Positions 3,521 through 47,341 of a stretch of 47,341 bases of DNA are shown piece by piece. A program made the position numbers and the translations under genes. The notes under the pieces are model-generated. The model made no database searches, was not told the origin of the DNA, and saw only the letters and a list, made by a program, of their open reading frames with translations. The stretch lies in the IMG/VR virus record IMGVR_UViG_3300031520_000005, positions 1-47,341 of that record, one strand, 5' to 3'. The DNA comes from a virus. Its lineage: Duplodnaviria > Caudoviricetes. How positions within the stretch are numbered: the stretch's first letter is position 1; each line of letters opens with the position of its first letter.

Positions 3521-3741
3521 GCATTCTCCCTCAGTCGCCCTTCGGCAATGGCTAGGTTTATTAGCATCCCGGCCCCGTACTCGCTTGCCCGCTCGCGCAG
3601 TGCGGCCAAAGCCGCCTCGCGCGTCCGGCCCCACCCCACCAGGCGGAAGTCAGTGTCACAGGGCCGGTACAGCGAAACGCAGTGCGGGCCGCGCGCGGCG
3701 GCAGGCAGATGCACGTAGTCTAGTGTCCAATCAGTCATCAT
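3517..3741 (-). CDS. Hypothetical protein
   Basis: MMTDWTLDY... ORF with an ATGA overlap into the methyltransferase. Confidence 0.55.
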   Translation of the reverse strand: MMTDWTLDYVHLPAAARGPHCVSLYRPCDTDFRLVGWGRTREAALAALRERASEYGAGMLINLAIAEGRLRENA

Positions 3742-5807: not shown

Positions 5808-5885
5808 CTAGAGCTATCGTAGGCAAAGCAAAACTAGAGCTATCGTAGGCAAAGCAAAACTAGAGCTATCGTAGGCAAAGCAAAA
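5808..5885. repeat. Tandem repeat, 3 x 26 bp (CTAGAGCTATCGTAGGCAAAGCAAAA)
   Basis: Three exact intergenic copies with no spacers. Confidence 0.95.
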
Positions 5886-12560: not shown

Positions 12561-15500
12561 CTACCCTAGCCTTTGGCGCAGGACGGTTGCTAAATCCTCG
12601 CTGCCGCTGCCGCTTTGCGTGGCGTAGTGGTTTGTCTGGTTGACCTCAATCGGGCGGGCTGCGCCGCCTGTCATGCGCTCCATAGCGTCTCCAATTCGGT
12701 CTAGCCTGCGGTGCGTGCCGCTTATGTCGGCGGGGGCAGCGTGCTGCACATTGGTGATAAACGAGGGCGGCAGGGCAGGCGGCGGGGCCGTGCCTGCGAG
12801 CATGGCCTGACTCAGCACCACCTCGCGGGGCATGAGCATGGCAGGCACGCTGTCCTGATTGCCTTGTCCCGGCACGACGCCGCCATTCGCAAAGTGGAAG
12901 ATATGCCCCAGTCCGCCGAGCACCTTGCTTGCCACGCCTCCACCGGGGATAAATGACGCGGCCATGCCCGCAAGTCCCAGCAGTGCGCCGCCCTTGCCGC
13001 CGCCTGCGCCGGGCGCGCTCCCCATTACAATTCCGCTTCCCATCAGCCCCGGAGCCATGCCCGTGATAAAGACCGGCGTCGGCCCGCCCGCCTGCGCGGC
13101 CGCTCCGGAAGTCGCGGGGTGTTTCTTGTGCGTGAACATGTCCAGGATAGACAGCCCGGCCCCAAAGAGAGACAGCCCGGCCCCAATCGCTCCCCCTTGC
13201 CGCCCCATCATCGGAGCAACAGAGGCCGCTGTGCCAAGCCAATCCGTGCCGCCGCCGCCCCTACTGGGCGCGATACCCGGCGTGGCAGCAAGCCCCTTCC
13301 CGCCGCCGCCTTTAGTCAGAGTCTGACTTTTTGTCGCCGAGTAAATGGACAGGCCCGCAGATAGTAGAGAGCCAAAGCCCCCGCCTGCGCCGCTACCCCC
13401 AAAACCGCCAGAGGGCGATGCTGCCGGGTCATTGGGAGCTGTCGCGCCGGGGGCATTGGGCGGGGCCGCGCCGGGCTTGTTTCTGCCAAAGTCCAGCCCG
13501 CCCCCAAAACGCGAACCGAACAACTGTGACGAGGCCCACATAACGGCAAGATGCCGAATGATGCCTGCCACTTCGCCTTCCCACGCTTTCAGCCCATCTT
13601 TGTAAGAGTGGGCTTGTTCTAAAGCGCTGGAAAAGGCTGTTTTTGCGCCATCGGCAAGGCTGTTGAACGGTGAGGCGGCCCGGCGCTGGGCGTCAATCTC
13701 GTCAAGCTGGCCTTTAAGCGCCATATACTGCTCACTGACAATTCCTTTTGCGCTGTCAGCATACTTTTTGGTCAACGAAAGCTGACTTCCCAAAAAGCCC
13801 CTGTACTGACTCAGGCTAATGCCGTGCTGTTCTAACTCAAAACGTTGGCTACCTTGCAGAGCAGTGCGCTCGGCATCGGCCTGCTGACGGCTCAGGCTGG
13901 AGAGTTTCGCGGCAAGCCACGCATTTGCCGTCGCCTTATCCTGCGTCGTTCTCAGGAGTTCAACAGACGCGGCTCTCGCATCCTCTCGCAAACCCTTGTA
14001 ATAATCACGCGCTGAGGCAAGGCCGTCTTTCCAGCCGTCGTGATTGAGCGTCACGATTTCTTTACGGGCGGTGGCAATGGCGGCAGGCACGGCGCGCAAC
14101 TTCCCTAATTGCTCGGTGTAATCAGCAAACTCCTGAGTGTCCTGCCCGAACTTCTTTTGCTGGCCGGTCAGGTACTGGTCATAAGCGCCTCGCGTGCTGA
14201 GATGCGCGTCAAATTGGGACTTTGCTTTTTTGTCTGCCTCCGTGCGCGTCTTATCTGCCGCCGCCTCGTTATGGGTCTTGAGTTTGTCATTGACGGCATC
14301 TAGCGCAGCATCACGGGCATCGCTGAGCACCTTAATCTGCGCCTGCTGCCCGGTGCTGTAAAGCCCCCACGAGGCTTGCACGGCCTTGACGCGGGCGTTG
14401 TATTTGGCAAGCACGCCCGCCCGCTCTTGGCCGATCTGCACACCCTCCGGGTCTAAGTCGCCCCGCGCCTGCGCAAGTGCCGCCGTCGCCATGCCCTGCC
14501 GCTTCTGCTGGCCCGTGGTGACAGTCAGGGCGTGGCGGGCAATCGCGTTCATGCGCCGCACGTGGGCTTCTAGGGCCGTCTCTGCGTGCTTGTGAGCCGT
14601 TTTCTGTGCTTTGGCTTCTTTCGTGTCCGCATTGGCCTCTAAGCGGGCCATAGCCGCATGGTAGGTGGCGGCACTGATTAAGCCTTTGGCGCGGGCGGCA
14701 TTCAGGTTGTGCGTTTCCCGCTCCTGGGCCGTCATGCCTACCGTGTCGGCAAACTTGCCCGCCTTGCTCCCCGCTGCTGTTTTGGTAAACAGGGCCGGGT
14801 TAAATTCAACCGAATTATTAAACGGCACGCCGCCGCCATGAGTGTTAAAACGATAAACAGACGCATGGGCAGCATCATACATCGCCATTGTGCGCTTGAC
14901 ATTATTGCTTGATTGCGCTATCTGCCCACTGCCCATTGATACGCCGACGTGGTAGCCGCTTCTCTCGCCCCCGCCCTGCCGCGCCCCATAACGCGCCCCA
15001 TGCCAAACAACCAAGTCACCCGATTGCGCCTGTCCGGTCGGCACTTGCTTTGCCCCGTGAGACACGGCATAGTCACGCAAGCCTTTTGCGCCGGCAATGA
15101 CGGGCACGGCTTCGCCCATCTTCGTGAGCAACTTAGAAGCGAACAAGGCGCACGGCGCTTTGGCTTCGGGCGTATCTATGCCCGCAACAAGCCCCTTGAC
15201 AACGGCAGTCGCCGGGTGCGCTGCTGCCGTAATCCCTTTAATCACGCCTTGCTGCTGATGCAAAGAGCCAGTCAGTGCCGCCGCATCCGCATACTCCTTG
15301 CGGATGCGGGCCTGCAAATCTTTGTACCGCCCCGATTGCTGCACGGGGCCGGTGAGAAGCTCATAAGGCTTGTTCTCACGGGGCATATCCGCAAGTTTGG
15401 CTTTGTCTGCTTTGATGCCATCACGCAGGGACGAAAGCGCATTAACAATATTGACAATCGCGCCGTCGGTGCGCCTTTGCAGGTCGCCGTCCCTGCCAAG

Positions 15501-32963: not shown

Positions 32964-33236
32964 TTATCTTACGAGAGTTTGGGCGCCCGTGTCAACGCTT
33001 TTTGTCTTGGTTTCCTTCGTTTCGGAGGATTTCAAGCCGAGCCGCCTTAGTTGTTGCTCTGACAGCCCGGTTTCCTCTGGCAAGTTGTGCAGCCGGGGCA
33101 GAGGAACGGCGGGGTGGTTTTGCGCCCAATACGCTTGATACTCAGCCCAGACCTTGCGCGGCTTTCTGTATTTGCAGAACTGCGCCCCCCGGCTTTCATA
33201 GCCGCCCGTCATGCTGATTGTCGGCGCGTCATTCAT
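32964..33236 (-). CDS. Hypothetical protein
   Basis: ATGA overlap with the upstream gene. Confidence 0.55.
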   Translation of the reverse strand: MNDAPTISMTGGYESRGAQFCKYRKPRKVWAEYQAYWAQNHPAVPLPRLHNLPEETGLSEQQLRRLGLKSSETKETKTKSVDTGAQTLVR

Positions 33237-33652
33237 AGGGGGTTGCGTTTTCGCTTGGCCCTCGAACGCGCAACGCCTCTTGCACTTGCCTTAGCCTGCC
33301 TGCCCCCGCCGACCGCCTTGTCGGACGCGAGCCTCGAACGCGCAACGCCTCTTGCACTTGCCTTAGCTCTGCATTCAGCGCTACAAATGATTTGACGGCC
33401 ATGGGTTGCTACGAACGAGTTGCCGCAGATTGTGCAGCCGACAACGCTAGGTTCTTCAGGTAAGAGGGGCCAAACAATGGGGAAAAATACTTCCCCCCAC
33501 ACGTCTACCCACCCTCCTTCGGGTTTGCTAGAGCGGCGACAGATTACCTGTTGAATAATTTGAGGGTATTGCTCAAAGCTTCCATAGCAAAGGATTGGGG
33601 CGTCGCTGTTTGTCGGTGCAGTTGCTATAAGTTGCCACGGGGTTTGCGTCAT
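33233..33652 (-). CDS. Hypothetical protein (WQLIATAP N-terminus, zinc finger) carrying an in-frame 72-bp repeat-spacer insertion
   Basis: CTIC...CSAEC followed by AKASARGVARSR-LASDKAVGGGRQ-AKASARGVARSR. Confidence 0.7.
   Translation of the reverse strand: MTQTPWQLIATAPTNSDAPILCYGSFEQYPQIIQQVICRRSSKPEGGWVDVWGEVFFPIVWPLLPEEPSVVGCTICGNSFVATHGRQIICSAECRAKASARGVARSRLASDKAVGGGRQAKASARGVARSRAKRKRNPL
33260..33367 (-). CRISPR. CRISPR-like repeat-spacer-repeat unit (36/36/36 bp) with a non-canonical repeat; the spacer matches this phage at 44309-44344
   Basis: Repeats 33260-33295 and 33332-33367 are identical (CCTCGAACGCGCAACGCCTCTTGCACTTGCCTTAGC). Spacer CTGCCTGCCCCCGCCGACCGCCTTGTCGGACGCGAG is identical to 44309-44344. 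Confidence 0.75.
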
Positions 33653-33711
33653 TGGTTTAGTCCTGTCCCAGCATCAGCGAGGGCGTGCAGAGCGGCGCGG
33701 TAAAACATCCC

Positions 33712-33748
33712 GTTGCACCCGCCTCTAGGGGCGGGTGAGGATTGAAAC
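33712..33748 (+). CRISPR. Solitary type I-C-like CRISPR repeat (37 bp)
   Basis: GTTGCACCCGCCTCTAGGGGCGGGTGAGGATTGAAAC: GTTGCA start, CACCCGCC/GGCGGGTG stem, 11-nt AGGATTGAAAC 3' end; intergenic and abuts the dnaB stop; no second copy seen. Confidence 0.85.
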
Positions 33749-35146
33749 TTAAAATCCATCCTCTTGCCAGTCGTCAAAACGAGCAAAGCCGGGGGCAAAG
33801 CCGAGCTTGACATGTCCGGTCGGGCCGTTGCGGTGCTTGGCGAAGATAAGTTCCGTTTCTTCCAGAGCCGCGACGGGGGGCGCGTCGCCCAGCGCTCCCT
33901 TGCGCCGGTAATAGCTTTCGCGGTACAAAAAGCACACCAGGTCTGCGTCCTGCTCGATGTCGCCCGACTCGCGCAAATCAGACAGCAAGGGCCGCTTGTT
34001 TTCCCGGCTTTCCACACTGCGCGAAAGCTGAGACAGCGCCAGCACGGGCACGCCGAAGTCGCGGGCAAGCTGCTTGAGACCACGGCTGATACTGCCGACT
34101 GCCTGCGTCCGGTTCTCGGTTTTCTCATCGGCCTGCATGAGCTGCAGGTAGTCCACGACAATGAGCGACAGCGGCGCAGTGCGTTCCAAGCGGCGGCACT
34201 CGCGGGCGATGAAGGCGGGCGTGGCGCGGGTGTCATCGCAGATAAAGAGCGGCGCGTCGTAAAACTCATTGGCGGCAATATTGGTCTGCTCAAACTGGGC
34301 GGGCGTGAGCCGCCCCGCATTGAAGGCTTGGCTCGGCACCTCGCCCCGGCTGCAAATAATCCGCTTGGTGAGCTGATCCATGGACATTTCAAGGCTGAAT
34401 ACGGCGACTGTTTCGCGGCGGTCAATGGCAGCGCGCAGGCCAATCTCTAGGCCCAAAGCGGTCTTGCCCATGCTCGGACGGGCGGCCAGTATCACGAGGT
34501 CTGAGGGCTGCAGTCCCCCGGTCATGGCATCAATGTCCCGGAAGCCGGTGGGCAGCCCCATCATGCGCCCGCCCTGCTCGGCGTTCGCTTCTGCCTGCTC
34601 CATCAGGCGCAGAACGGCGGAAGCCAGCTTTTCGCAGGCGGCGGCACCGCGACGGGTTTCAATGGCGGCAAGGCGGCTTTGGGCGGCAGACAACACCGCG
34701 CCGCTCTCAGCGTCATGGGCAAGCGCGGCGGACTGCGTGGCCTGGGCCGCGTCAAGGGCCTGCCGCAGAACACTTTTCTCCCGCACGATCCGGGCGTAAT
34801 GCTCAACGTTAAGGGCCGTGGGCACGGTGTCAAACAGGGCTGTGAGAAACACGATCCCACCGACGCGCTCTAACAGGCCCCGCCGCGATAGCTCTGCCTG
34901 CATGGTCAAGAGGTCAACGGGCCGCGCCTGCCGGGTGAGGTCAAGAATAGCGGAAAACACGGCGAAATGCTCGGACCAGTAGAAGTCGCTCGCCGTGACA
35001 AGGGCCGTCGCTGCGTCTATGGCGCTGGCTAAGATCAGCATGGAGCCAAGTGTCGCTTGCTCAGCTTCAATGTTCTGGGGCGGCAGGTACGGCTCGGGGG
35101 TAGGCAAATTGGTTGCGGGCAAAGGGGCATATTTGTTTTTGGTCAC
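33749..35146 (-). CDS. dnaB: Replicative DNA helicase
   Basis: PPQNIEAEQ, ILAARPSMGKT, FSLEMS, VVDYLQL, LSQLSR, DLRESGDIEQDAD, KHRNGP. Confidence 0.97.
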   Translation of the reverse strand: MTKNKYAPLPATNLPTPEPYLPPQNIEAEQATLGSMLILASAIDAATALVTASDFYWSEHFAVFSAILDLTRQARPVDLLTMQAELSRRGLLERVGGIVFLTALFDTVPTALNVEHYARIVREKSVLRQALDAAQATQSAALAHDAESGAVLSAAQSRLAAIETRRGAAACEKLASAVLRLMEQAEANAEQGGRMMGLPTGFRDIDAMTGGLQPSDLVILAARPSMGKTALGLEIGLRAAIDRRETVAVFSLEMSMDQLTKRIICSRGEVPSQAFNAGRLTPAQFEQTNIAANEFYDAPLFICDDTRATPAFIARECRRLERTAPLSLIVVDYLQLMQADEKTENRTQAVGSISRGLKQLARDFGVPVLALSQLSRSVESRENKRPLLSDLRESGDIEQDADLVCFLYRESYYRRKGALGDAPPVAALEETELIFAKHRNGPTGHVKLGFAPGFARFDDWQEDGF

Positions 35147-36150
35147 TGGGCGGCTCCTTCGGCAAGGGCGGGGCTTGGTTTGGCAAGGGCGAGGCTTGGT
35201 TTGGCAAGGGCGGCGTCGGATTTAGGAAAGCGGGAGCGGAACGGCTGGGTCACAATCGGCACGCCCCCTGTTGCTGGGCTTCGGGCATCGGGTTCCGGCT
35301 CATCGCGCCATGCCCCGGCGTTCAGGTAGGTTGCCGGGTGCGGGATAAACGCCCCGCCATCTTTTGTCCAGGCACGGCTGCACTTTTGCCAGTCCAGGGC
35401 CGCCAGCATTGCCGCCAGCATGTCGGCATCGGGCTTTAGTTTCACCCACGCTTTCTCAGCGTCCGCAGGGTGCTTTTTCTTGGGATAGGCGCCGTAAAAC
35501 GCATCAAAGCGAAGCAGCAGAGAACTTCGCACCTTCACAGGTTCTTGTTCCGGGGTTGCGTGTGAAACAACTGTACACTCCGGCTCCGCAGGGGCCGTTC
35601 CCCCCCCGGGGGGGTTAGGGGGGTCTTCTCTTACAGAAGGAGTAGGAGAAGGAGTAGGAGAAGGAGTAGGAGAAGGAGTAGGAGACACGCGCGTGTAATG
35701 CTGTTCCTTGCCGTTCTCTGCCGATGCTTGCTGTTCCTTGCCGTTCTCTGCTGTTTGGGAGGCAGAATACTCTAAGAATTGCTGGTTAGGCGGGTAAAGT
35801 GAGCCTTTATCGTTTGTGCGCTTGCTGATATTGATATAGGATTGCCGTTTGAACCATGCGTCGGGCGGGAAGGCAATATACTGTTTGTCGCCGACTTCAT
35901 AGCGATCCCAGAGTCCCAGCCGTGCGATCTCGCTTAACACAGCGTCAATTTCTTGCTTTGGCGTGTCAAAGCCGGGGCAAACCAGCATCTTAAACTCGCG
36001 CGGGCTGCCTGGGAGCCGCCCCCAGTCGTCAGCTTGGGGAATTGCCATCATGTAAAGGGCGACGGCGAGGTATCCCTGCTCAGACTCGGAAAGCTCGGCA
36101 ATGCGCTCATCATGGGAAATATCACTAGACATGTCACGTTTTCGGCTCAT
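35143..36150 (-). CDS. Phage replication initiator / replisome organiser
   Basis: N-terminal ADDWGRL motif; central repeats (AENGKEQ x2, PTPS x4); C-terminal FDAFY.AYPKK...FIPHPATYLN; directly upstream of dnaB. Confidence 0.8.
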   Translation of the reverse strand: MSRKRDMSSDISHDERIAELSESEQGYLAVALYMMAIPQADDWGRLPGSPREFKMLVCPGFDTPKQEIDAVLSEIARLGLWDRYEVGDKQYIAFPPDAWFKRQSYINISKRTNDKGSLYPPNQQFLEYSASQTAENGKEQQASAENGKEQHYTRVSPTPSPTPSPTPSPTPSVREDPPNPPGGGTAPAEPECTVVSHATPEQEPVKVRSSLLLRFDAFYGAYPKKKHPADAEKAWVKLKPDADMLAAMLAALDWQKCSRAWTKDGGAFIPHPATYLNAGAWRDEPEPDARSPATGGVPIVTQPFRSRFPKSDAALAKPSLALAKPSPALAEGAAQ

Positions 36151-36222
36151 GTCGTTTCCTCCGGTTTTCTGTCAGTCTCGTTTTTCTTCAGCGGGCACTG
36201 CGCCTGGTGCTCCAGCTTGCCC

Positions 36223-37008
36223 TCACTCACAAGGGCCGGGATGGTAAAGCACTTGCAGCCTCTCGCCCACGCCGCGCGGCTGCCGGGTTTCAGCATCCAG
36301 CCAGGACGCACGCGGCGTACTTTGGGGGCTGTCATGGGGAGGTTTGTCATGGGGAGGTTTGTCATGGGGAGGTTTGCATGGGGCGAGCCTCCGGTACACA
36401 ATCACCCACACCCAAGGATTTTCAGCCCAGCCAAACCCGCGCTTTGCGTTGATCCTGTCCCACAGTTTGCCAAAGCAATACAAGGGCCAGTCCTCGCCGC
36501 CGTTCGTGTCAACGCCTTCGGCGAGTGCGTCGTGCTCAGTGATGTCCTGCACCCGTTCCACGCGCACGCTGACAATTTCCAGGGTCAGGCGTGATGCCCA
36601 GCGCGGCATGTGGATGGAGGGTTTCCATCGCGGCTGATAAATAGCACCATCCAGCGACGGCGACGGGCCTTCCCAGCCTGCGTCTGCCTCGCGCGTCGTG
36701 CCGTCCGGGTATTCAATCTCATAAAATCGCTCCAACCGCGCTGACGGTCGCCATCTCTCGCGCACCCAAAGCCTGTCGCCCGCCTGCCCATAGGGACACG
36801 GAATGCGCTTATAGCGCTCTGTGTCGTAGCCCTCAGGTTCGTCCGGTGCATGACGATAAGGATAGCCCTCAGAAATCAAGTCCGGCTGGGGCTTTATCAC
36901 GCGCCGGGTTTGGGTTTTGATGTCAGCTAGGGTTGCCCGTACCATGTCACCCTGCATCAGCAGGGGCCGCTCTTTGGCGTCTGTCATCTGCGCTTTAGTA
37001 TCTGTCAT
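36223..37008 (-). CDS. Conserved phage protein (ASCH/PUA-like, KTQTRR family)
   Basis: KTQTRRVIK...CPYG..GDRLWVRE...WKPSIHMPRWASRLTLEI...NPWVWVI. Confidence 0.8.
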   Translation of the reverse strand: MTDTKAQMTDAKERPLLMQGDMVRATLADIKTQTRRVIKPQPDLISEGYPYRHAPDEPEGYDTERYKRIPCPYGQAGDRLWVRERWRPSARLERFYEIEYPDGTTREADAGWEGPSPSLDGAIYQPRWKPSIHMPRWASRLTLEIVSVRVERVQDITEHDALAEGVDTNGGEDWPLYCFGKLWDRINAKRGFGWAENPWVWVIVYRRLAPCKPPHDKPPHDKPPHDSPQSTPRASWLDAETRQPRGVGERLQVLYHPGPCE

Positions 37009-37282
37009 AGTCACGCCTCAATCCCAAAGCCTGCCGGAATATGTCTTTAATCAAAGCCACCTCTGCCCTGTCCCGCCGCGTCTGTGCCATGCTGTCACCA
37101 CGCTCGCCCCTGAGCCTTGCGCCAAGGGGGACTAACTCGCCCGTGCCATAAGACGCCCCTACCCTGCCGTCTGGATACCAGTAGAGGGTTTGGTCACTGC
37201 GGGCGGGGTTGACAAGCTGCCAGTCCTTCGGGCCATGCTGAATGAGTGTCCAATGAGCATAGGGGTGAGTGGCCGCGAGCAC
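36995..37282 (-). CDS. Hypothetical protein
   Basis: GGAGG RBS before a GTG in track ORF 36995..37390. Confidence 0.45.
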   Translation of the reverse strand: MLAATHPYAHWTLIQHGPKDWQLVNPARSDQTLYWYPDGRVGASYGTGELVPLGARLRGERGDSMAQTRRDRAEVALIKDIFRQALGLRRDYDRY

Positions 37283-37286
37283 TTGT

Positions 37287-37553
37287 TTAACGTCCTCCCA
37301 CCAGCGTCGTCCACAAATAGCACCCAGCCCAGCCCGCCGCAAACGCCACGGCCAGGAACAACCCGCCCAGCCAGTTGGGGCCGGGGTCAAAGTCGCTGTC
37401 CAGGGCGTCGTTGTAAACTATCTCTGCCAAAGCGTCTGGCTCTGCGTCCTGGTACAGGCATCTGGCTGTGGCTGAGTGATAATCAGTTTCGTGCAGGTCA
37501 TAGGCGCGGTCGTCTAGTTGCTGGGCTAAATAGCGAGGAAGGGGATTGCTCAT
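37287..37553 (-). CDS. Small protein with a C-terminal TM helix
   Basis: Hydrophobic C-terminus; overlaps the upstream gene. Confidence 0.55.
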   Translation of the reverse strand: MSNPLPRYLAQQLDDRAYDLHETDYHSATARCLYQDAEPDALAEIVYNDALDSDFDPGPNWLGGLFLAVAFAAGWAGCYLWTTLVGGR

Positions 37554-37834
37554 CTATTGCCTCTCAGTCTGTGGATATGGACATGCAGGACGCCGACGCG
37601 CTTGTAGTTAGGGCAAAGCCGCCGCATCGCTAAAGGCGTCAAATCGCAGTTTGTGCGCCCTCGCGCCGTCCTGTCAGTGACGGTGACAATCACGCGCCTG
37701 CCGTTCGCCGCCACAATCCTTAACCGGCTATGGAGCGGATACACGCGCGAGGCGCAGGCCAGCGCGCATGGATTAAAGCGGTGCCCATTGGACATACGGC
37801 CTGCCGATTGGGTGTAAAAAGTTGCGAGACTCAT
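37550..37834 (-). CDS. RlpA-like double-psi beta-barrel (lytic transglycosylase/expansin-like) protein
   Basis: ATFY...MSNGHRFNP.ALACAS..YPL.SRLRI...NGRRVIVTVTDR...DLT..A. Confidence 0.75.
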   Translation of the reverse strand: MSLATFYTQSAGRMSNGHRFNPCALACASRVYPLHSRLRIVAANGRRVIVTVTDRTARGRTNCDLTPLAMRRLCPNYKRVGVLHVHIHRLRGNR

Positions 37835-38267
37835 TTCGGCCCCTCCGTTGTCCAGTGTATGTTGTGGGCGTAGGTCCCGCCCACGTCGCCGCTTTCGGAA
37901 ACGGGGGCTTCGCACGGGCATTAGCATCAACCTCCACTCCTGCTGCCTCTGCCTCGCCTGCCATTGCCTGCCGGACATACACGCCGATCGTGCGGCACAT
38001 GTCGGCAAACGGCAGGGCCACAGCCGCCTCGCCGGGTATCTCCAGCACAAGCAGGGCGTTAGCCAGCCTCGGATCGCGCGTGTTGATAATTTCTGCCGTG
38101 TTGATAATTTCTGCCGTGTTGATAATTTCTGCCGTGTTGATAATTTCTGCCGTGTTGATAATTTCTGCCGTGTTGATAATTTCTGCCGTGTTGATAATTT
38201 CTGCCGTGCCGGTATGGAGCATCCGTTTATCCGTGTCGCTCACATTTTGTTTGTTTACATGGCTCAT
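37773..38267 (-). CDS. Hypothetical protein with seven TAEIIN repeats
   Basis: ATG 38267; internal 18-bp tandem array. Confidence 0.55.
   Translation of the reverse strand: MSHVNKQNVSDTDKRMLHTGTAEIINTAEIINTAEIINTAEIINTAEIINTAEIINTAEIINTRDPRLANALLVLEIPGEAAVALPFADMCRTIGVYVRQAMAGEAEAAGVEVDANARAKPPFPKAATWAGPTPTTYTGQRRGRNESRNFLHPIGRPYVQWAPL
38080..38208. repeat. Tandem repeat, 7 x 18 bp (GTGTTGATAATTTCTGCC)
   Basis: Exact copies, in frame. Confidence 0.95.
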
Positions 38268-38899
38268 GTTGCCACTTTGCCCCCTTCGCGAAAGGCCCCA
38301 CCCGCCTGTACTGCGCGCCCCCGTGCGGTTTTCTGCCCAACTAGCCGCGCGGCGAGCAGACGGAGCGCGGCATTCGCCGTCGGCGGACAAAAGAGGCACC
38401 AGTGCCCGGCCACTTGTTTGTAGGTGGCAACGCAGTGTTCCCCGCGCGCCAGCAGCCTCCGGGGGGCGTCCTCGGCAGTGAGGGCTATCGCGCACCAACG
38501 CTCTCCGCTTGGCCCTTCCTGCCGCACAAGCAAAAACCCCCTTCCAAACACGCTTTTGCCCAGGGCAATGGCGGCATGCCGGGAGTAGAGGCTGCGCCTC
38601 GCCGCACGGTTTTGCTCCGCATGAGCTGCATACTGCGCTCGGTGCAATGCGTGCGCTTTGTCCGGGTTGCGCCTGCGCCAAGCCTCGCGTGCCGCCCGGC
38701 ACCGCTCCGGGTGCTTGCTGGCATATCGCCTCTTGACCTCTGCCCGGTTTGCAGCTTGCCCCGCCTCTCGGCAGGTATCGCCGCAGTACCAGGAACCCCG
38801 GTGAGAGGCTGCAAACATCTCTTTGCACAGACGGCACACACGAATAAAGCCCTCATCGCCTCTGCCTGTTTGCCTTGCCGTTTGTGGGGTCGTTTGCAT
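38264..38899 (-). CDS. Zinc-finger, Arg-rich hypothetical protein
   Basis: CRLC...YCGDTC followed by a basic helical region. Confidence 0.55.
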   Translation of the reverse strand: MQTTPQTARQTGRGDEGFIRVCRLCKEMFAASHRGSWYCGDTCREAGQAANRAEVKRRYASKHPERCRAAREAWRRRNPDKAHALHRAQYAAHAEQNRAARRSLYSRHAAIALGKSVFGRGFLLVRQEGPSGERWCAIALTAEDAPRRLLARGEHCVATYKQVAGHWCLFCPPTANAALRLLAARLVGQKTARGRAVQAGGAFREGGKVAT

Positions 38900-39435
38900 C
38901 ACGCTGCCCCCGTTTCGCCGCACCCGCAGGCGCGCAGGCTTTGGTATCCACCCGCCCCGCAAAACATCCACGCCGTCCACGCCGGCCCGCCGCACAACGG
39001 GCAGCCTGCCCCCGGCCCGCTTGCCCAACGTAGTTCAGCCGAGGCCGTGCCCGCAGGGAGGGCTGCCTTTGCTGCGTCAATCGCTTGCATCAGGCCGGGG
39101 AGCAGGGCGGCAAGGTTCCGGGCATGGCGGCAGTCTGGAGCCAATGTCGCCCGCCCAAACGCGCCTTTGTAGCAGCCGCAATCCTGCACGCAGTACCCGC
39201 CAGGGTCGTTGCACGTCCCCCAAATGAGGTTGTATGTGCTGCAGCTTGTGCCGCTCGTCACCGTGGCCGTCCCGTCGGGCCGCACGGTGTAAAAGTCCGG
39301 CCCTGCTTTGGGTTTTATTAGTTTGGGTTTTGCTTCTTTGGGCACGGCGAGGGTTTGGGGCATGATGGTTTGGGTTGTCACTGTTTTATTCCTGTCGCTT
39401 TGGCAATGACAGCCGCCCTGAAAGGTGTTGCTCAT
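38899..39435 (-). CDS. SWIM zinc-finger protein
   Basis: CGC...CRH SWIM motif plus a C-terminal CPLC/CGC. Confidence 0.6.
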   Translation of the reverse strand: MSNTFQGGCHCQSDRNKTVTTQTIMPQTLAVPKEAKPKLIKPKAGPDFYTVRPDGTATVTSGTSCSTYNLIWGTCNDPGGYCVQDCGCYKGAFGRATLAPDCRHARNLAALLPGLMQAIDAAKAALPAGTASAELRWASGPGAGCPLCGGPAWTAWMFCGAGGYQSLRACGCGETGAA

Positions 39436-39436
39436 G

Positions 39437-40066
39437 TTAATTCTTGCCCTTCTGCGTTTTGTCGGCAAGCAACTCAAGCAGTTTTTCACTCGCCGCCGCA
39501 CTCGCCGCATCCCTCGCCGCCGCACTCGCCGCATCCCACGCCGCATCCCTCGCCGCATCCCACGCCGCAGCACTCGCCGCCGCCCACGCCGCAGCAGAAA
39601 CGGCTTCGCCGTTAATCGCCTGCAAATGCAGGCTGGCAACGCCCTCAATAGCCTTGCGTTGCTGCTCATCAATGTCCCCCTGAACAAACCGAATCACACC
39701 CCCGGCAGGGTCAACCAACAGCCAATGCAAAAACTGATGGTAAACAATGGTGAGGTCTGTGCCCACAGGCAAAGCCTCTATGAATCTTGCCGGAAACATT
39801 TTTGCACTGGCTTCCGGCAGCGCCTCAAACAAGCTATCAATGAGATAAGCCAGCCATAAAGGAATGCCAATTTGCCGAGATAGCGCCTCATGGCTGTTAG
39901 TACCGGAATGCGCAAGACAGCCGATGGCGCACCCTTTCCAGCCAGTCGCCCCGACCGCCTTGCCATAAGTCCCTTTTATAAAATCGTCATCCTCCCGGTG
40001 CTTTTTTGCCCGTGCGAGATAAGTTTTCTTGAGCTGAGCGTCGCCGTAAAATGTCAGTGTTTCCAT
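39437..40066 (-). CDS. Conserved phage hypothetical protein with AASAAAW/DAA repeats
   Basis: KGCAIGC motif; 12-bp-unit low-complexity repeats. Confidence 0.7.
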   Translation of the reverse strand: METLTFYGDAQLKKTYLARAKKHREDDDFIKGTYGKAVGATGWKGCAIGCLAHSGTNSHEALSRQIGIPLWLAYLIDSLFEALPEASAKMFPARFIEALPVGTDLTIVYHQFLHWLLVDPAGGVIRFVQGDIDEQQRKAIEGVASLHLQAINGEAVSAAAWAAASAAAWDAARDAAWDAASAAARDAASAAASEKLLELLADKTQKGKN

Positions 40067-40067
40067 G

Positions 40068-40487
40068 CTAGTTTGCCTCCGCGTTCGTGTCGCAAACGCA
40101 CTGGACTCGTCCGCAATCGTAGCAGGCGTCCATGCGCGTCATGCGTGCGTGGTACATCTGCGCCGCCTCGCGGTAATCCCACTCGCCATGCTCAGCGGCG
40201 GGCGCGGTGTCTATGAGCCAGCACTGGCGCCCGTGCGCCGTGGTTTCGTGCTTGACAATCGCCACCGTCTGCCCGCCGATGTCATCAGTCCCGTTTTTGT
40301 CAAAGCGGTACGACGTGCGCGGCCCCCACTCGTCGCGGGTCAGGCGGATCGCAGTCACGGTGTGCGTGTCCAATATCTCCCGTGCGTTATCCTGGGCGCC
40401 ATGCACTGACTGCACGGCGCTCTGCGTGTCGGTGTCCAGTAAGGTTTTTGAGGTGAGCATGGTTCGGGTTGGCATCATGGCGGGCAT
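40068..40487 (-). CDS. Hypothetical early protein
   Basis: AGGGAG RBS; promoter-like GTGCGA-N17-TATATT upstream. Confidence 0.6.
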   Translation of the reverse strand: MPAMMPTRTMLTSKTLLDTDTQSAVQSVHGAQDNAREILDTHTVTAIRLTRDEWGPRTSYRFDKNGTDDIGGQTVAIVKHETTAHGRQCWLIDTAPAAEHGEWDYREAAQMYHARMTRMDACYDCGRVQCVCDTNAEAN

Positions 40488-40526
40488 TTGTCTGTCTCCC
40501 TGTGCGGTTCGTTTGGCTACAGGGTT

Positions 40527-40897
40527 AATATACCACAATTTACGATATATCGCACAACGATAACAAAATACTCAAAAAAATAATTCGGCTTTTTTCAGGC
40601 TGCAATTGGCTACTGGTTAACACATTTTGTCAGGGTATCTATGTCAACGCCCAATGCGGTTGCGATGCGCAGAGCTTTGCTCAGAGTCGGCTCAAAGCCG
40701 CGCCCCTCTAAATCGTACCAGTACGAGGGGGAAATGGCCGCTTTGCGCGCCGCTTCCTGAACGGAAAGCCCTGCCTCAAGCCGCAGATATTTGAGGTGTG
40801 TTCCAAAGTTCATCTTGCCATGATAGCACATTTCACGGTATTTCGCAAATAGCACCCTTTTCGTTCGTTACGATATGTCGCAACTTTTGGGTACATT
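40527..40897. promoter_or_regulatory. Immunity-region promoters and three operator-like sites
   Basis: TTACGATATATCGCA (40540), TCACGGTATTTCGCA (40833) and TTACGATATGTCGCA (40868). The first two overlap the -35 boxes of minus-strand promoters GTGCGA-N17-TATATT and TTGCGA-N17-TATCAT; the third overlaps a plus-strand TTACGA-N18-TACATT. Confidence 0.7.
40610..40813 (-). CDS. Cro-like XRE-family HTH regulator (leaderless)
   Basis: MNFGTHLKYLRLEAGLSVQEAARKAAIS...EPTLSKALRIATALGV; divergent from the repressor. Confidence 0.9.
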   Translation of the reverse strand: MNFGTHLKYLRLEAGLSVQEAARKAAISPSYWYDLEGRGFEPTLSKALRIATALGVDIDTLTKCVNQ

Positions 40898-40927
40898 CGG
40901 TGTCAACAGTAATTGGGGACGAAATAT

Positions 40928-41845
40928 ATGGTGACAGCTTTGGTAGACACGCCTGAAATAGAGCCGCTGGACTTCGGGGGCTGGGTCAAAAAACGAATGG
41001 AGCAGGCGGGTGTTACTGCCGCGCAATTGTCTACTGAGACAGGCATTTTGTATCCTAACGTATTGCGCCTGCTCAACAGCGGCAAGAACGGAAAACCCAT
41101 TCGTCCCGACCACGAAACTATTGAGCGTATCGCCACTACACTGGTTAGGTTAGATGTTATACAGGACAGGCGCGATGCTTTTGTGGCGGCAGGCTACGTC
41201 CCAAAGGGCTACAAAGTTGTCCGCGAGCAGTCTCAATCCCAGCGCCAATCGAATATGGTGCACGAGCATCCGATCTATAACTATTTGGACGGTCAGACCC
41301 CGCCCCACATGGACACAGCACTACGCATTTTGGAGGCGGCGCTACCCAACAACAACGCAGAAAACGCCATCCAGCAGCAAACAACCAGCAGCCCGCCCAC
41401 GCAAGCCGCCGACAGCCCGTCCCCGGTGACACAGCGAGAAATTATGGTGACACAGCGAGAAATGCGGATGCGCGCCACCCGACTCACCAGCGAGGTGCGC
41501 GCCCGCGATTTGCGTGTCGCCCTCGCCGAAGCCGTCATTTGGACACTGGACATGGAGGGCCGCTTTCTGCTGTCCGAGGGGGAGGGCTTGAAGCAAGCGG
41601 ACATTTCTCCCGGCGAGGCGGTCGGCCTGCGCATTTGGGATGTGTACAAAGGCGAGACGGACTTCCTCGAAAAAGTTCGCATGGTGCTGGCAAGCGACGG
41701 CCCCCTGGAATGGACAACTACCGTGCGCGGGACAGCCTGGCGGTGCATGACGGAGCCGCTCAGGAATGCCAATGGTGTGAAAGTGGGGATTGTCGGCACG
41801 TCACTTGCTGTGCCGACGATTTCAGAAGGCCAAAAACAAGCATAG
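40928..41845 (+). CDS. CI-position repressor: N-terminal XRE HTH fused to a C-terminal PAS domain
   Basis: FGGWVKKRMEQAGVTAAQLSTETGI...RPDHETIERIA; C-terminus VIWTLDMEGRFLLSEG...VGLRIWDVY...PLRNANG..VGIVGT. Confidence 0.8.
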   Translation: MVTALVDTPEIEPLDFGGWVKKRMEQAGVTAAQLSTETGILYPNVLRLLNSGKNGKPIRPDHETIERIATTLVRLDVIQDRRDAFVAAGYVPKGYKVVREQSQSQRQSNMVHEHPIYNYLDGQTPPHMDTALRILEAALPNNNAENAIQQQTTSSPPTQAADSPSPVTQREIMVTQREMRMRATRLTSEVRARDLRVALAEAVIWTLDMEGRFLLSEGEGLKQADISPGEAVGLRIWDVYKGETDFLEKVRMVLASDGPLEWTTTVRGTAWRCMTEPLRNANGVKVGIVGTSLAVPTISEGQKQA

Positions 41846-41886
41846 AACCGACACGACCTCGCGCGCATGGTAGAGAGGATATCGGC

Positions 41887-42741
41887 ATGAGACAAGCAAT
41901 AGTGTTATTGGCGGCAGGATTAATGCTTGCGGTGGCGGCAACAGATGCACCGCCAAAAGCAAAAACAGCCTTCCACGCTAAACCATCAGTCAAAAAACCT
42001 GTCACCGCGCCTACCAAGGCCCCTTCTGTTACGCCGGGCCTTTCTATTGCAGACACCAAAACGTTCTTTTTAGACTTTATCAGCAAGAGCAAACCCCCAG
42101 AAAAGAGCGAGTTTGAGACCGATACAGATTATCAAAAACGGCTGCCGCCAGCGTTTGACACCAAAAAGGTCATTTATTTTATCGCCGAAATGCAGCCGGA
42201 AACAGACAAAAACTATAAGTACGACATTGCCACCAAAACATTGAGCGTTTTGGGAGGATGGCAACAGTATAGCGATGACCGCAAGTCTATTCCGTCAGGG
42301 GCCACAAGTATTGCCATCCGGCAGGATTATAAAGATTTAGGAAGCTATAACGGCACAACAGCGGGCGGCGCTAATGTGTCAGTGAGTAAGGCTTCTTTTC
42401 TCACATTCGTTTTGGACTTTCGTAATCAATCCGCGTGGCCTGTAGCCGTCTGGAACGCCTTAGACGCAAAGACCAGCAACAAGCACTTGTCCGTTTCTGT
42501 GCCAATGGAACCCCTAGAGGCCGAGGCATTAAGTAAGCATATTGAGTTGGTGATTGGAGTGACATTGGCAGGTTACAGCAACACTGACAGCGAGATTACT
42601 TTTCGCACAACACCTACTTTTGATGATCCAAGTGATCTTGTGTCAACCACTGTTTCGGCAGAGGCAAACCTTGTCAGTTTAACAGTTCTTGATACCGCAA
42701 GCAAAAAAATAATCACCCAAGTTTTTGTGAAAGGTTTGTAA
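41887..42741 (+). CDS. Secreted/periplasmic hypothetical protein (possible lysogenic conversion or exclusion)
   Basis: GAGAGGA RBS; MRQAIVLLAAGLMLAVAA signal peptide; KSEFETDTDY..RL motif. Confidence 0.75.
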   Translation: MRQAIVLLAAGLMLAVAATDAPPKAKTAFHAKPSVKKPVTAPTKAPSVTPGLSIADTKTFFLDFISKSKPPEKSEFETDTDYQKRLPPAFDTKKVIYFIAEMQPETDKNYKYDIATKTLSVLGGWQQYSDDRKSIPSGATSIAIRQDYKDLGSYNGTTAGGANVSVSKASFLTFVLDFRNQSAWPVAVWNALDAKTSNKHLSVSVPMEPLEAEALSKHIELVIGVTLAGYSNTDSEITFRTTPTFDDPSDLVSTTVSAEANLVSLTVLDTASKKIITQVFVKGL

Positions 42742-43157
42742 TGCCGGAAAAGCCGTGGGCGGACGCAAAGCGCGATTTTGAGAGCCGGGAAGACGCGGAC
42801 TATCACTTTTACGAAGGCAGCCTCAGCCCCGAAGAAACTCGAACGGCGCGGGCCGAAGCCAAAGCGGATCACCCGGAACTTGATGAGGTCTTAGAGGATT
42901 TGCTGGCAACTTATGATTACCTGCTGATTGTCCATCGCCTTACCAACCTGATGCGCGATACGCCGCATGGGAAAGCATTTTTGGCGAAGCAGGCTCAGAT
43001 TGCCAGCATTGCCGAGCGCGAACAAAAAGAGAGGGAGATGCAGCGCCAAATGGAAGTTAGGCGACGCGAAGCAGAAGTTAGGCGACGCGAAGCAGAAGTT
43101 AGGCGACGCGAAGCAGAAGCCAGGCTAGGCGGCACGCCCAAAGGCAACCGCCGCTAA
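42741..43157 (+). CDS. Hypothetical protein with EVRRREA x3
   Basis: Coupled to the upstream stop; 21-bp repeats at about 43052-43118. Confidence 0.6.
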   Translation: MPEKPWADAKRDFESREDADYHFYEGSLSPEETRTARAEAKADHPELDEVLEDLLATYDYLLIVHRLTNLMRDTPHGKAFLAKQAQIASIAEREQKEREMQRQMEVRRREAEVRRREAEVRRREAEARLGGTPKGNRR

Positions 43158-43176
43158 CCGTGCAGCAGCGACTCGC

Positions 43177-43395
43177 CTACAGAGGCAGCAACTCGCTGGC
43201 AGAGTACCAGTCATCACACTGGATGGCTGTGATGAGTTTGTCAAGCGCCGGGTTATCCGTGCGCATCCTCTCGGCTAAAAACGTGTTGATTTGCACTGAG
43301 GCAAGTAATCCTGCGTAACCGGCCAGGTCTTTTATGAGTTCTTGCGCGGCAGGGCGTACAAGATTGCTCGGTGCTGCTAAGTTGGTTGCATCCAT
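43177..43395 (-). CDS. Small hypothetical protein (leaderless)
   Basis: Perfect TATAAT (43408-43403, minus strand) 7 nt upstream of the ATG. Confidence 0.6.
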   Translation of the reverse strand: MDATNLAAPSNLVRPAAQELIKDLAGYAGLLASVQINTFLAERMRTDNPALDKLITAIQCDDWYSASELLPL

Positions 43396-43784
43396 AACCG
43401 GAATTATACCTTATGAAGCCGTTGCCCGCTCTCCTGCTTGCCCTGGCCCTCGCCGCCTACGCCCTAGCCTTTCGCCCGGCCCCACCCCTTGTCATTCGCG
43501 GCCCGCGACGTGCGCCTCCGCCCCCACATTCTGCGCGAAATACCCCCTGCCGCCGAACTGCTTGCCGTAAAGGGGTTATTGCACGTCTAAACGCGGCGTG
43601 CATTGGCGTGTCTAGACGTGTATTGGACGTGCAATTAATAAGCACGAGGCAGAACAGCCGTTTGTTCTCGGTCTTTTGGCGTGTCCATCGCAGCCAGAGT
43701 CTACAGTAGACACCTGGTAAGAGTGGTAGACAGGGCGCAGGTCGGGCGAACGGGGCGGGCTTGGGCCATCTCACGCGGTGTTTG

Positions 43785-43812
43785 GTGGTTAATAATCCTG
43801 ATTATGTCAACT
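43785..43812 (+). other. dif-like XerC/XerD recombination site
   Basis: GTGGTTAATAA-TCCTGA-TTATGTCAACT in 11-6-11 layout; right arm matches the E. coli XerD arm TTATGTTAAAT at 9/11; intergenic. Confidence 0.75.
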
Positions 43813-43876
43813 GCGCGGCAGGGGTAGACGCCTGGCACGCCCGTCAAACCTATTGTCCAATTGCCGAAAAACTACA

Positions 43877-44467
43877 ATGACAGATATTGCCCCGCCCCCA
43901 ACAGATATTGCTCCATTGCAACAATCTCGCAATGCTGAGCAGCCCCCCGCTGATTTACTGACGCTCAAGGAAATCAGCGAGCGGCTGGGCGTGGCCTACG
44001 GACGCCTGCGCGGGTTTGCCGAAACGCCCGGCGTGGCGGAATACGTCGGAGCCGTCAAGGTGGCCGGGGTCAAAGGCGTACGTTACCCTGCCGAGGCTGA
44101 GGGGCAGTTTGCCCGGCTTGTCCAGGCCCAAGACGCAGGCATTGTGACGCCCAAAACAGCCCGTGCGTTCCTCGCCAGTGCCAGTGTTGCGCCATTACAG
44201 CAATTGAGCAATGACGGAGACGGCAGAGTTATTGTCCCATTGCAACAATCTCGCGAAGGGACGGCGGTGGCGGCTATGGAGCGATTGTCGGATATGTTGT
44301 CCTCGCGCCTGCCTGCCCCCGCCGACCGCCTTGTCGGACGCGAGGAAGCCGCGCAGCTTCTGGCCTGCAAGCCCGGCTCAGTGGGGCGGTATATACGTCC
44401 GGTGAGGCGTGGGGCATGGCGGCATTCGGACATCCAAAGGTACATTGCGGCATTGTTGAAACGATGA
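43877..44467 (+). CDS. Protein with two MerR/excisionase-like HTH domains (candidate plasmid maintenance regulator)
   Basis: LLTLKEISERLGVAYGRL...RYP and RLVGREEAAQLLACKPGSV; contains the protospacer 44309-44344. Confidence 0.75.
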   Translation: MTDIAPPPTDIAPLQQSRNAEQPPADLLTLKEISERLGVAYGRLRGFAETPGVAEYVGAVKVAGVKGVRYPAEAEGQFARLVQAQDAGIVTPKTARAFLASASVAPLQQLSNDGDGRVIVPLQQSREGTAVAAMERLSDMLSSRLPAPADRLVGREEAAQLLACKPGSVGRYIRPVRRGAWRHSDIQRYIAALLKR

Positions 44468-45099: not shown

Positions 45100-45341
45100 G
45101 CAAAATATCCACTGTACCCACAACTGCCGAATGGGTTGTGCCTGATAACGTGCATATTACCGAGGCCAACCTGCCGGGCCTGATCGCGGCTGTTGTAGAG
45201 ACGCTTGGCAAGCGTATTTATGTTTATGAGGATGGCTCGAACGGCAGGCTGCTTGTGACCGATAAACGCAAGCGCACACCCAATATCGCATGCGAACTGC
45301 TGCTAATCGCGTGGCCGAAAAAGACAGGGGGCAAAAAATGA
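45096..45341 (+). CDS. Hypothetical protein
   Basis: ATGA overlaps at both ends. Confidence 0.6.
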   Translation: MSKISTVPTTAEWVVPDNVHITEANLPGLIAAVVETLGKRIYVYEDGSNGRLLVTDKRKRTPNIACELLLIAWPKKTGGKK

Positions 45342-45919
45342 GCCGTCCTGTTTCGCGCGAAAAACCTTTGCATGAAAAGGCCGATGCGCCGTACATCCAA
45401 GTACCACTGAGCCTCATGTCACGCAAGGACATAAGCCAGACCGCCAAGCTGCTGTACGGGCTTATTGTGTGCCTCTCGCACCAGGCCGGGTACTGCTATG
45501 CCTCCGATGACTACATAGCCGAACGGATTGGCGTCAGCAAGCGGCAGACGCAGCGAGCCATTACCGAACTTGAAACTCTGCGGATCGTGCTCATCACGGG
45601 GGCAACAAGCCGTCGCCATATCCGGCCAGCTAACGACAAAAACGGCGTGAGTTACCCCAAGACTGACGACGTGCTAACGACAAAAACGTCACAAGATAGC
45701 CCCCCGCTTACGACAAAAACGTCGTCAACTAACGACAAAAACGGCGCTATAATAGAAAAGGGAATAAAAAAGAAAATAGAAAAGATATTGCCTGCGGCTG
45801 TTCAGGAGGCAGAGCGGCCGCAGGCAGTCCGCGCCGCCCAAAGCATACTGGAGACGGCAGACACGGCGTTCGCGCGGGCACGGCGGCAGAAGGCTGCGCA
45901 GAAAGGCGGGGCCGAATGA
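45338..45919 (+). CDS. Winged-helix (HTH_36-like) replication initiator
   Basis: YIQVP..LM.RKDISQTAKLLYG...GYCYASDDYIAERIGVSKRQTQRAITELE; contains iterons. Confidence 0.8.
   Translation: MSRPVSREKPLHEKADAPYIQVPLSLMSRKDISQTAKLLYGLIVCLSHQAGYCYASDDYIAERIGVSKRQTQRAITELETLRIVLITGATSRRHIRPANDKNGVSYPKTDDVLTTKTSQDSPPLTTKTSSTNDKNGAIIEKGIKKKIEKILPAAVQEAERPQAVRAAQSILETADTAFARARRQKAAQKGGAE
45630..45789 (+). other. Iteron-type replication origin
   Basis: CTWACGACAAAAACG at 45630, 45674, 45707 and 45729 (spacings 44, 33, 22 bp), followed by an A-rich tract at 45748-45789. Confidence 0.8.
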
Positions 45920-46062: not shown

Positions 46063-47341
46063 TTAGGGCTTGAGGCTCTCCCCACCAAAGCCGGGCCAAA
46101 TCGTCTTATCCCAATCCGCCTCTTGTGCCAGCAGGCCGGGGTCAACGCCCACTTGTGCCAGGTCAACTAATGTCTCGCGCTGCATGTTTTCCAGGCTGTC
46201 TCCGCCATATAGGATTTGCCCCTGCCCCTGCGCGCTGGCGCGCCACTCGGCAGGCGTAAACTGCTGCATCTTGTCAAACTGCGCCTCAGCCACAGCCGTC
46301 GCAATCTGTGCCCATGTTGCCGCGCTCAGCCCCGGCTCCGGGATGCCGGCGTGCCAGTAAAAAAAGCGCACGTCCCCGGCAAAGTGCGGGAACCAGCCTG
46401 TCGTGGTGTTCAGCGTCCCGTCCGTGTCGCTTTGTTGCATGGCCTTAATCAGCATCGCGGTCATGCGGAGGCGCGAGGGCGCGCCCGTCGCCTGGTACAG
46501 ATCACCCGTGCGCCCAATCGCATAGCCAAAGTCCACCGGGTGAAACCCGTTGCGGTGCCGGTTGCCGCTGTTGAGCACCATCTGCACCGCGTACCACGCG
46601 TTCGTCAAATACTCGTATTTCCCGCGCCCAAACAGGCTGCCGTCCTCGCGCACGCCGACAAAAGCAGGCGAGACCAGAAAGGCCGCTTCAGACAGCCACG
46701 AGCGGCTTTCTCCGGGCGCCCCCGCGCCCGGAGCGGTCGGATAAATCAGCCCGGCATTACCCTCTAGGTTATATTCCTGCATCATCTCCCAGTTTTTGAC
46801 CAGCAGCCACTGCGCCGTGCTTTCCATCCCCTCCTGGTACAACGCCGTGCCGTCGCTTTGCGCCCCGCGCGCATGGATAAAATCGCTGTAATCCTGCCCG
46901 CTCCATGCCCCCAGCATCTGCGGCAAGACCGCGCCAGGGGCGCTTGTGATAAACGCATGGTAGCCTGCGTCGGGGTTGCTCAGGGCAGCGCGCAGGCTGG
47001 CGCTGCCAAACCGGCTTGGGCCGTTCCCATCATAGAACCGGGCAAAGGCGCTCTGCGTAAACGTGTCGCCCCAGGCGTCAATAGGGGCAATGCGCGGCAA
47101 CCAGTGGTTCCAGTCAGGAAGCTGAAGGGCAATGGGCAGCTCGCGCATGTTGAGCGTGTCGCCCGCCCCGATGCCGTCTTTGTCAGACGGATTGTAGGTG
47201 ATTCCGCGTGGGAACAGATACGGCAGCATGTCGCTGTCTTTGGGCAGCACAGCGCCCAGCCCGGCTCCTGCCGCCCAGGCGCTCAGGGGCTTCTTGTCTA
47301 GGCCCGGCCCTGGTTGGTAGGGCGGGTTCCAGGGCCTGCCT
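46063..47341 (-). CDS. C-terminal part of a large secreted protein, open at the right edge
   Basis: Frame is open to the edge: GRPWNPPYQPGPGLD...WAAGAGL.AVLP.D..ML..LFP...LQLPDWNHWLP; extends track ORF 46063..47250. Confidence 0.8.
   Translation of the reverse strand, partial: GRPWNPPYQPGPGLDKKPLSAWAAGAGLGAVLPKDSDMLPYLFPRGITYNPSDKDGIGAGDTLNMRELPIALQLPDWNHWLPRIAPIDAWGDTFTQSAFARFYDGNGPSRFGSASLRAALSNPDAGYHAFITSAPGAVLPQMLGAWSGQDYSDFIHARGAQSDGTALYQEGMESTAQWLLVKNWEMMQEYNLEGNAGLIYPTAPGAGAPGESRSWLSEAAFLVSPAFVGVREDGSLFGRGKYEYLTNAWYAVQMVLNSGNRHRNGFHPVDFGYAIGRTGDLYQATGAPSRLRMTAMLIKAMQQSDTDGTLNTTTGWFPHFAGDVRFFYWHAGIPEPGLSAATWAQIATAVAEAQFDKMQQFTPAEWRASAQGQGQILYGGDSLENMQRETLVDLAQVGVDPGLLAQEADWDKTIWPGFGGESLKP

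Follow-up and report, generated by a model that had tools for sequence, protein, structure and literature searches.

The question raised by this locus is how a 36-nt segment of one phage gene came to be present a second time, unchanged, inside another gene of the same genome about 11 kb away, flanked there by two identical 36-mers. The window analysed is the whole of IMG/VR record IMGVR_UViG_3300031520_000005 (47,341 nt), a tailed-phage genome in which ORF profile searches identify terminase, portal, capsid, tape measure, DnaB and repressor genes. We propose, from sequence comparisons, that the unit is very probably the product of off-target integration by a type I-C Cas4-Cas1-Cas2 complex, and that it persists as a tolerated in-frame scar.

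Structure of the unit

The unit spans 33260–33367 and is assigned to the minus strand. It consists of the leader-side copy of a duplicated target site (33332–33367), a spacer-like insert with its PAM-proximal end at 33331 (33296–33331), and the second copy of the target site (33260–33295), the orientation being taken from the PAM and from the leader weight matrix described below. The target site is ordinary coding DNA; its two copies are identical over 36 nt and the sequences flanking them differ on both sides, so that no extension is possible. The insert is an exact copy of 44309–44344, and the match comes to 38 nt (33294–33331 with 44307–44344) if a shared GC is counted; the two copies show zero divergence. 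The putative protospacer (44309–44344, minus strand) lies on the complement of the coding strand of gene 43877–44467, and it is followed by GAA at 44345–44347, so that on the minus strand a TTC PAM stands directly 5' of the protospacer and is missing from the insert. This geometry had been set out in the earlier note and is confirmed exactly.

Self-comparison of the window confirms the match and identifies it as the sole long dispersed exact repeat; all other exact repeats longer than 18 nt are tandem or near-tandem, and a repeat-insert-repeat arrangement of this kind occurs only once in the phage. Chance pairs of 38-mers are expected in the window at ~1e-13. TTC occupies 1.1% of phage positions, and a PAM lying exactly at one end of the insert is expected by chance in 2–4% of cases. 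There is no junction microhomology at the PAM side and 2 nt (GC) at the other, which has a 13% chance expectation.

The phage is present in two rock-metagenome runs, X1 and X2, of which X1 is the probable source sample; the Logan contigs of X1 come from a different assembler. The X1 graph breaks exactly at the 36-nt repeat and at the source, giving a left-junction piece (33266–33323, 58 nt, depth 6.9) and a right-junction piece (33302–33361, 60 nt, depth 11.1), with depths of 20.2 for the 36-nt repeat node, 16.6 for the 38-nt shared node, and 13.4 and 12.1 for the flanks. Both junction words are present in X1 reads at half to full flank depth, in pieces that carry 28–30 letters a side (below a 31-letter bridging bar) and of which no single one covers the unit from end to end; some of the molecules may be empty. 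Run X2 contains identical pieces for 33022–33230 and 33403–33558 and none across the site. The X1 graph has a second branch point of 30 nt at 43633–43662, without a TTC or GAA flank, which may stem from a further spacer, a repeat or a variant.

The interrupted gene and the source gene

The unit lies in a minus-strand gene (33233–33652) for a small protein with a zinc-ribbon-like CxxC...CxxxC module, assigned from the sequence and module matches, followed by a basic tail. As the earlier note had it, the 72-nt gain keeps the frame: the product is 139 aa long with the unit and 115 aa without it, and the 24 added residues fall in the basic tail. The only full-length homologue of the target protein, P0001, is 115 aa long and 79% identical; aligned with it, P0001 has the repeat-encoded peptide once and no insert, and constitutes at the protein level the empty allele that the earlier note expected among relatives. 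A search of 1.84 billion representatives with the target protein added only matches to the zinc-ribbon module, and profile and homology searches gave nothing on its function beyond these. Viral sequences were scanned for empty-allele DNA with four proteins, the duplicated 26-mer and the solitary repeat described below (exact and loop-variable), without result; the matches listed in a metagenome scan for P0001 comprised only the contig of the window itself, and GenBank phages gave no match.

The source gene (43877–44467, plus strand) encodes a predicted DNA-binding protein with two helix-turn-helix (HTH) motifs, with weak PHROG hits and 11 homologues. The peptide encoded by the source segment (P-x-D-R-L-x-x-x-x-E/Q-A-A) aligns in all 10 homologues compared, and D150, R151 and L152 of the source protein are invariant in them. 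The insert is taken to be derived, because P0001 lacks the 24 residues and the source segment is conserved coding sequence in these homologues; copying is accordingly read as running from 44309–44344 into the target gene, and as recent because the copies are undiverged. We infer that the host belongs to the phylum of G001 (an Armatimonadota record), because the source-gene family occurs in 6 of its 401 genomes and a prophage in G056 has a terminase with 62% identity to that of the phage, the search having covered this one phylum only. The G056 prophage also has portal and protease in common with the phage, and is without the target gene and without a solitary repeat.

A solitary repeat and arrays of the type I-C family

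A solitary 37-nt CRISPR repeat is located on the plus strand at 33712–33748, 345 nt from the unit and in a single copy in the window; it has a hairpin z of −3.1, its 3' end abuts the dnaB stop, and it lies antisense to the early operon between that stop and the target gene. The earlier note had described it as a genuine type I-C repeat, and typing of the repeat family from neighbouring genes (41 selected proteins in 10 genomes) agrees: eight genomes are type I-C (Cas3c, 5c, 8c, 7c, 4c, 1c and 2c), one is type III and one is without a cas subtype. There are 3 mismatches to the array repeats of L001 and L003, and the 21-nt tail of the repeat is found in 70/401 genomes of the phylum of G001. It is a single intergenic full-length match to an I-C repeat, which is the sequence definition of a solitary repeat unit (PMC10651486), and is a candidate RNA anti-CRISPR or empty leader-repeat unit. 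The 10 nt upstream bear a partial resemblance to a leader (top 0.7% when all arrays are used, 15% for the phylum set); a consensus scan found no plus-strand promoter for it, and the phage has no TTC-flanked site that a guide from either flank of the repeat would match. Two variations on this family are noted elsewhere: in G241 an array of the family (L057) adjoins type III-B genes and not I-C genes, and G001 has several leaders with single- or two-repeat units away from its long arrays (L001:124–160, L012, L015), including two near-identical leaders.

The insert is of I-C spacer length, as had been proposed. Among 260 distinct spacers of the repeat family from other genomes (a set without the noisy array L005 and the window's own contig), 49 are 36 nt long, 226 are 34–38 nt and the mode is 35 nt (68 spacers); with L005 included, the mode of the repeat period is 72 (61/278). 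The family repeat is strictly 37 nt, with G first in 477 of 479 copies and C last in all 479. Comparison of 278 spacers from other genomes with the phage gave only one 23-nt chance match.

An X1 contig of depth 14.3 joins the last 21 letters of the family repeat, followed by two letters, to phage sequence from 40869 onward (joint 33748->40869). It points to a plus-strand array-spacer protospacer with its TTC PAM (40864–40898, PAM at 40864–40866, the spacer being read from 40867) and a mismatch at spacer position 2, which may be an escape change; the site lies between the repressor and a divergent gene and covers an operator-like palindrome, of which another copy is found at 40541. This joint shows X1 to hold a putative TTC-PAM array of this I-C repeat family that targets the phage and is about as abundant as it, the PAM being read from one spacer in a short joint with 21 letters on the repeat side. 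The TTC is in register at the phage target and matches the PAM named in the earlier note. A pattern search for the array spacer gave no match.

Proposed integration by a type I-C adaptation complex

These features are likely to reflect integration of the phage's own DNA into the phage by a host CRISPR adaptation complex. The complex would have taken a prespacer from 44309–44344, from which Cas4 would have removed the PAM; joining of the non-PAM end would then have taken place at 33367|33368, beside DNA that is similar to a leader end, and that of the PAM end at a distance of 36 nt on the opposite strand, with gap repair duplicating the 36-nt target. The scar would have persisted since a gain of 72 nt leaves the reading frame intact and the extra residues lie in a basic tail. 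Type I-C Cas4 is described as cleaving directly upstream of GAA in vitro (PMC6519985), about 90% of I-C spacers are reported to have TTC, with +1 slips in about 2% (PMC5602111), and I-C integration is described as polarised, the leader-repeat junction receiving the non-PAM end (bioRxiv 2022.05.30.494039). From polarised integration and a Cas4 cut at GAA together, the unit is predicted to be on the minus strand and to have its leader side at 33368.

A position weight matrix was built from the leaders of 22 arrays (18 from the phylum of G001), with three degenerate or gapped starts dropped, and was applied to ~94,500 positions of the insert-free phage. At the PAM-predicted junction the −10..−1 window ranks in the top 1.7% and 0.8%, that window plus the first G in the top 0.5% and 0.25%, −15..−1 in the top 4.5% and 7.3%, the repeat alone in the top 10–15% and −10..+10 in the top 20–22%, and the opposite orientation ranks at 53–88% in all 20 tests; the windows were picked after the motif had been seen by eye, and by leave-one-out 10 of 18 real leaders fit the motif and 8 do not. 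The candidate leader-like end beside the integration site (33368–33377, minus strand), a weak, post hoc and partial motif match over 10 nt, lies on the predicted side and lends modest support to integration. The target is identical to the family repeat at 14 of 36 positions, a value reached by 6% of positions. For P. furiosus Cas1-Cas2, the in vitro use of off-target sites that have only 43% identity with the repeat is described, at a spacing of 30–31 for a 30-nt repeat (PMC6698737). It seems that a short leader-end motif matters more than the repeat for I-C target choice.

The duplication is at most 36 nt, one base short of the strict 37-nt repeat of the family. The earlier note had called the duplication repeat-length without remarking on the difference. 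Either the second cut would have fallen one base short, or the family may duplicate 36 nt and take its last C from the PAM. In a calibration scan of 870 kb from two I-C-bearing genomes (G002 and G308) there was no clean unit outside arrays, with one tandem-looking 38/31 case and one array-terminal unit found, and the scan shows the repeat-insert-repeat geometry to be rare. Off-target I-C integration, which the earlier note had proposed, is supported by the empty allele, the conservation of the source, the junction words, the typing, the spacer lengths, the TTC spacer and the leader-like end, and is at odds with the length of the duplication. Priming of this acquisition by the mismatched array spacer is plausible but unsupported, since the new spacer and the putative priming spacer (40867) are on opposite strands, and opposite-strand spacers are a minority class (17–36%) in I-C priming (PMC5602111).

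Alternative explanations

The same enzyme could have produced the unit with different bookkeeping, in which a 36-nt duplication is completed by a C from the PAM and followed by a 35-nt spacer, its acquisition having slipped by one base (TCC). The last G of the repeat likewise comes from the PAM in E. coli type I-E. This variant accounts exactly for the 36-nt duplication, and the insert starts with C and would then be of modal spacer length; however, type I-C Cas4 is described as taking off the whole PAM in vitro (PMC6519985), +1 slips make up about 2% of I-C spacers (PMC5602111), and the array data fit both readings alike, so that we count it as an unlikely form of the integration proposed here. 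A more distant possibility is repair-templated insertion, whereby a stalled fork or break at 33295 jumped to 44309 across the GC and, once 36 nt had been copied, went back to a point 36 nt upstream; the TTC and the CRISPR-like sizes would then be due to chance. The GC common to one junction, the abundance of tandem duplications in the phage (periods 9–33 nt) and a duplication of 36 rather than 37 are in its favour. Against it, one end or the other would show 2 nt of homology by chance in 13% of cases, and there is no homology at the return junction. Chance would also have to yield a terminal TTC (2–4%), an insert of spacer length, a duplication of near repeat length and a leader-like end on the same side, and no such unit is seen in the 870 kb of control DNA; we regard a repair origin as very unlikely.

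Two further explanations concern whether the unit is real and whether it was selected. An assembly artefact, or junctions that lie on different molecules as reciprocal products of an 11-kb rearrangement, would agree with there being no X1 piece over the whole unit and no X2 piece across the site, and X1 is possibly itself the source sample. It is nonetheless extremely improbable: the graph of a second assembler breaks at the repeat and at the source with both junction pieces at half to full flank depth, the reading frame is kept, and the deletion of 33296–44308 would take out dnaB and the immunity region. Hardly more probable is a selected regulatory element, either through early mRNA antisense to the 43877–44467 mRNA or through processing of the unit into a guide. 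The target gene is on the minus strand and the source gene on the plus strand, giving 36–38 nt of perfect complement, but this antisense geometry follows from orientation alone and the complement is deep in the coding region on both RNAs. Zero divergence and the absence of the insert from the homologue suggest that the event was recent, shuffled sequences fold as well as the duplicated 36-mer does, and a loaded guide would self-target. Nothing supports the antisense regulatory link that the earlier note had suggested, nor is there any sign of selection.

Function of the unit

The duplicated 36-mer has no repeat-like hairpin (folding z −0.01 and +1.08) and no hit in Rfam, and a consensus scan found no promoter adjoining the unit. 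Its assignment as a true CRISPR repeat was rejected on the 14/36 identity, the folding z of −0.01, the Rfam result and the presence of the repeat-encoded peptide in P0001. A functional CRISPR mini-array was likewise rejected, as the repeats neither match nor fold like the I-C family repeat and there is no leader promoter. No guide RNA is predicted to arise from the unit, and a working guide is unlikely because there is no repeat-like hairpin and because such a guide would cut the phage's own intact PAM-protospacer; the working neo-array of the earlier note is set aside on the same grounds, its target with intact PAM being still in the phage. Among the runs listed, no RNA dataset holds phage sequence. 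The unit is probably without function.

Relationship to known systems

For type I-E in E. coli, Nivala, Shipman and Church reportedly described in 2018 both off-target (non-canonical) integration of spacers and neo-CRISPR arrays. Off-target integration giving neo-CRISPR units in E. coli over-producing Cas1-Cas2, and circumstantial evidence for the process in two further species, are mentioned in PMC7054753 and bioRxiv 148544. The phage unit shares with the E. coli units, in the form summarised there, a spacer-sized insert, an approximately repeat-length duplication of non-repeat DNA and a PAM at the source. It differs in being natural, probably of type I-C with Cas4 and without over-produced Cas1-Cas2, and in that a phage genome received a spacer of its own and the unit is apparently kept in the population. 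The in vitro products described for P. furiosus Cas1-Cas2 (PMC6698737) are similarly full-site, at ~40% repeat identity and with repeat-length spacing within one base, whereas the phage unit would have arisen in vivo and in another subtype, with gap repair and inheritance. Virus-borne mini-CRISPR arrays, as described in PMC6858448, also place repeat-spacer-repeat in a viral genome; here, in contrast, the repeats are coding DNA unrelated to the host repeat and inside a gene, and the spacer is self-targeting and without a promoter.

The solitary repeat at 33712–33748 has its own parallels, in viral crlRNAs (bioRxiv 2024.10.29.618823) and in the solitary repeat units and RNA anti-CRISPRs, including RacrIC1, outlined in PMC10651486. 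As with the latter it is intergenic, solitary and of the I-C family, and sits on a phage targeted by a matching array; unlike the RacrIC1-type units described there, it is antisense to an operon, with no consensus promoter upstream and no acr neighbour recognised.

In the literature searched, from which subscription papers and supplements fell outside the scope, there was no report of natural off-target integration in a phage genome. It is well supported that the unit is a natural variant of a known misfire, one otherwise known mainly from the laboratory, and that what is new is its being type I-C, phage-borne and self-derived. In nature, CRISPR adaptation would thereby be able to write into the genome of the invader itself and act on phage genes as a mutator that makes small in-frame changes; in this one case the source, the PAM, the empty allele and the cognate array are all visible. 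The biological weight of the unit is moderate, the reaction being known and the event single and probably neutral; it provides a substrate for asking what the type I-C integrase needs at its target, and about the 36 versus 37 duplication.

The solitary repeat as a possible decoy

The location of the unit permits a further suggestion, namely that Cas4-Cas1-Cas2 was drawn to the leader-repeat-like unit at 33712–33748 and inserted an anti-phage spacer at a distance of 345 nt from it, and not into the host array. We consider this quite unlikely; it is raised because a random site would lie this close to the solitary repeat in only 1.7% of cases, a figure that is less striking if only dispensable genes are counted. 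The unit and the solitary repeat face away from the same 344-nt stretch. If the suggestion is correct, solitary repeats would be DNA decoys against adaptation and not only RNA anti-CRISPRs, and decoy integration would be a route to the birth of viral mini-arrays; the closeness of the two makes a decoy role testable by a survey of genomes.

Other features of the phage genome

The phage genome is probably circularly permuted. At the window ends (1–~580 and 46063–47341, minus strand) one secreted-looking ORF apparently spans both ends with its frames 1 base off, and the genome seems to be circular with a small gap or overlap there. The earlier note had spoken of a plasmid module, which is unproven, and the ORFs scanned gave no integrase or partition protein hit; a Rep-like HTH gene is present at 45290–45919. 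Possible origins are located at 38079–38208, 45627–45746 and 5808–5885; they comprise perfect tandem arrays with units of 18 nt and 26 nt and, inside the Rep-like gene, four iteron-like repeats. A dispersed motif of ~20 nt (families D6/D11; at 13311, 26429, 29907 and 29930, and at 3735, 24983, 28237 and 32407) is found upstream of or within late genes, and its copies are possibly late-promoter or regulator sites.
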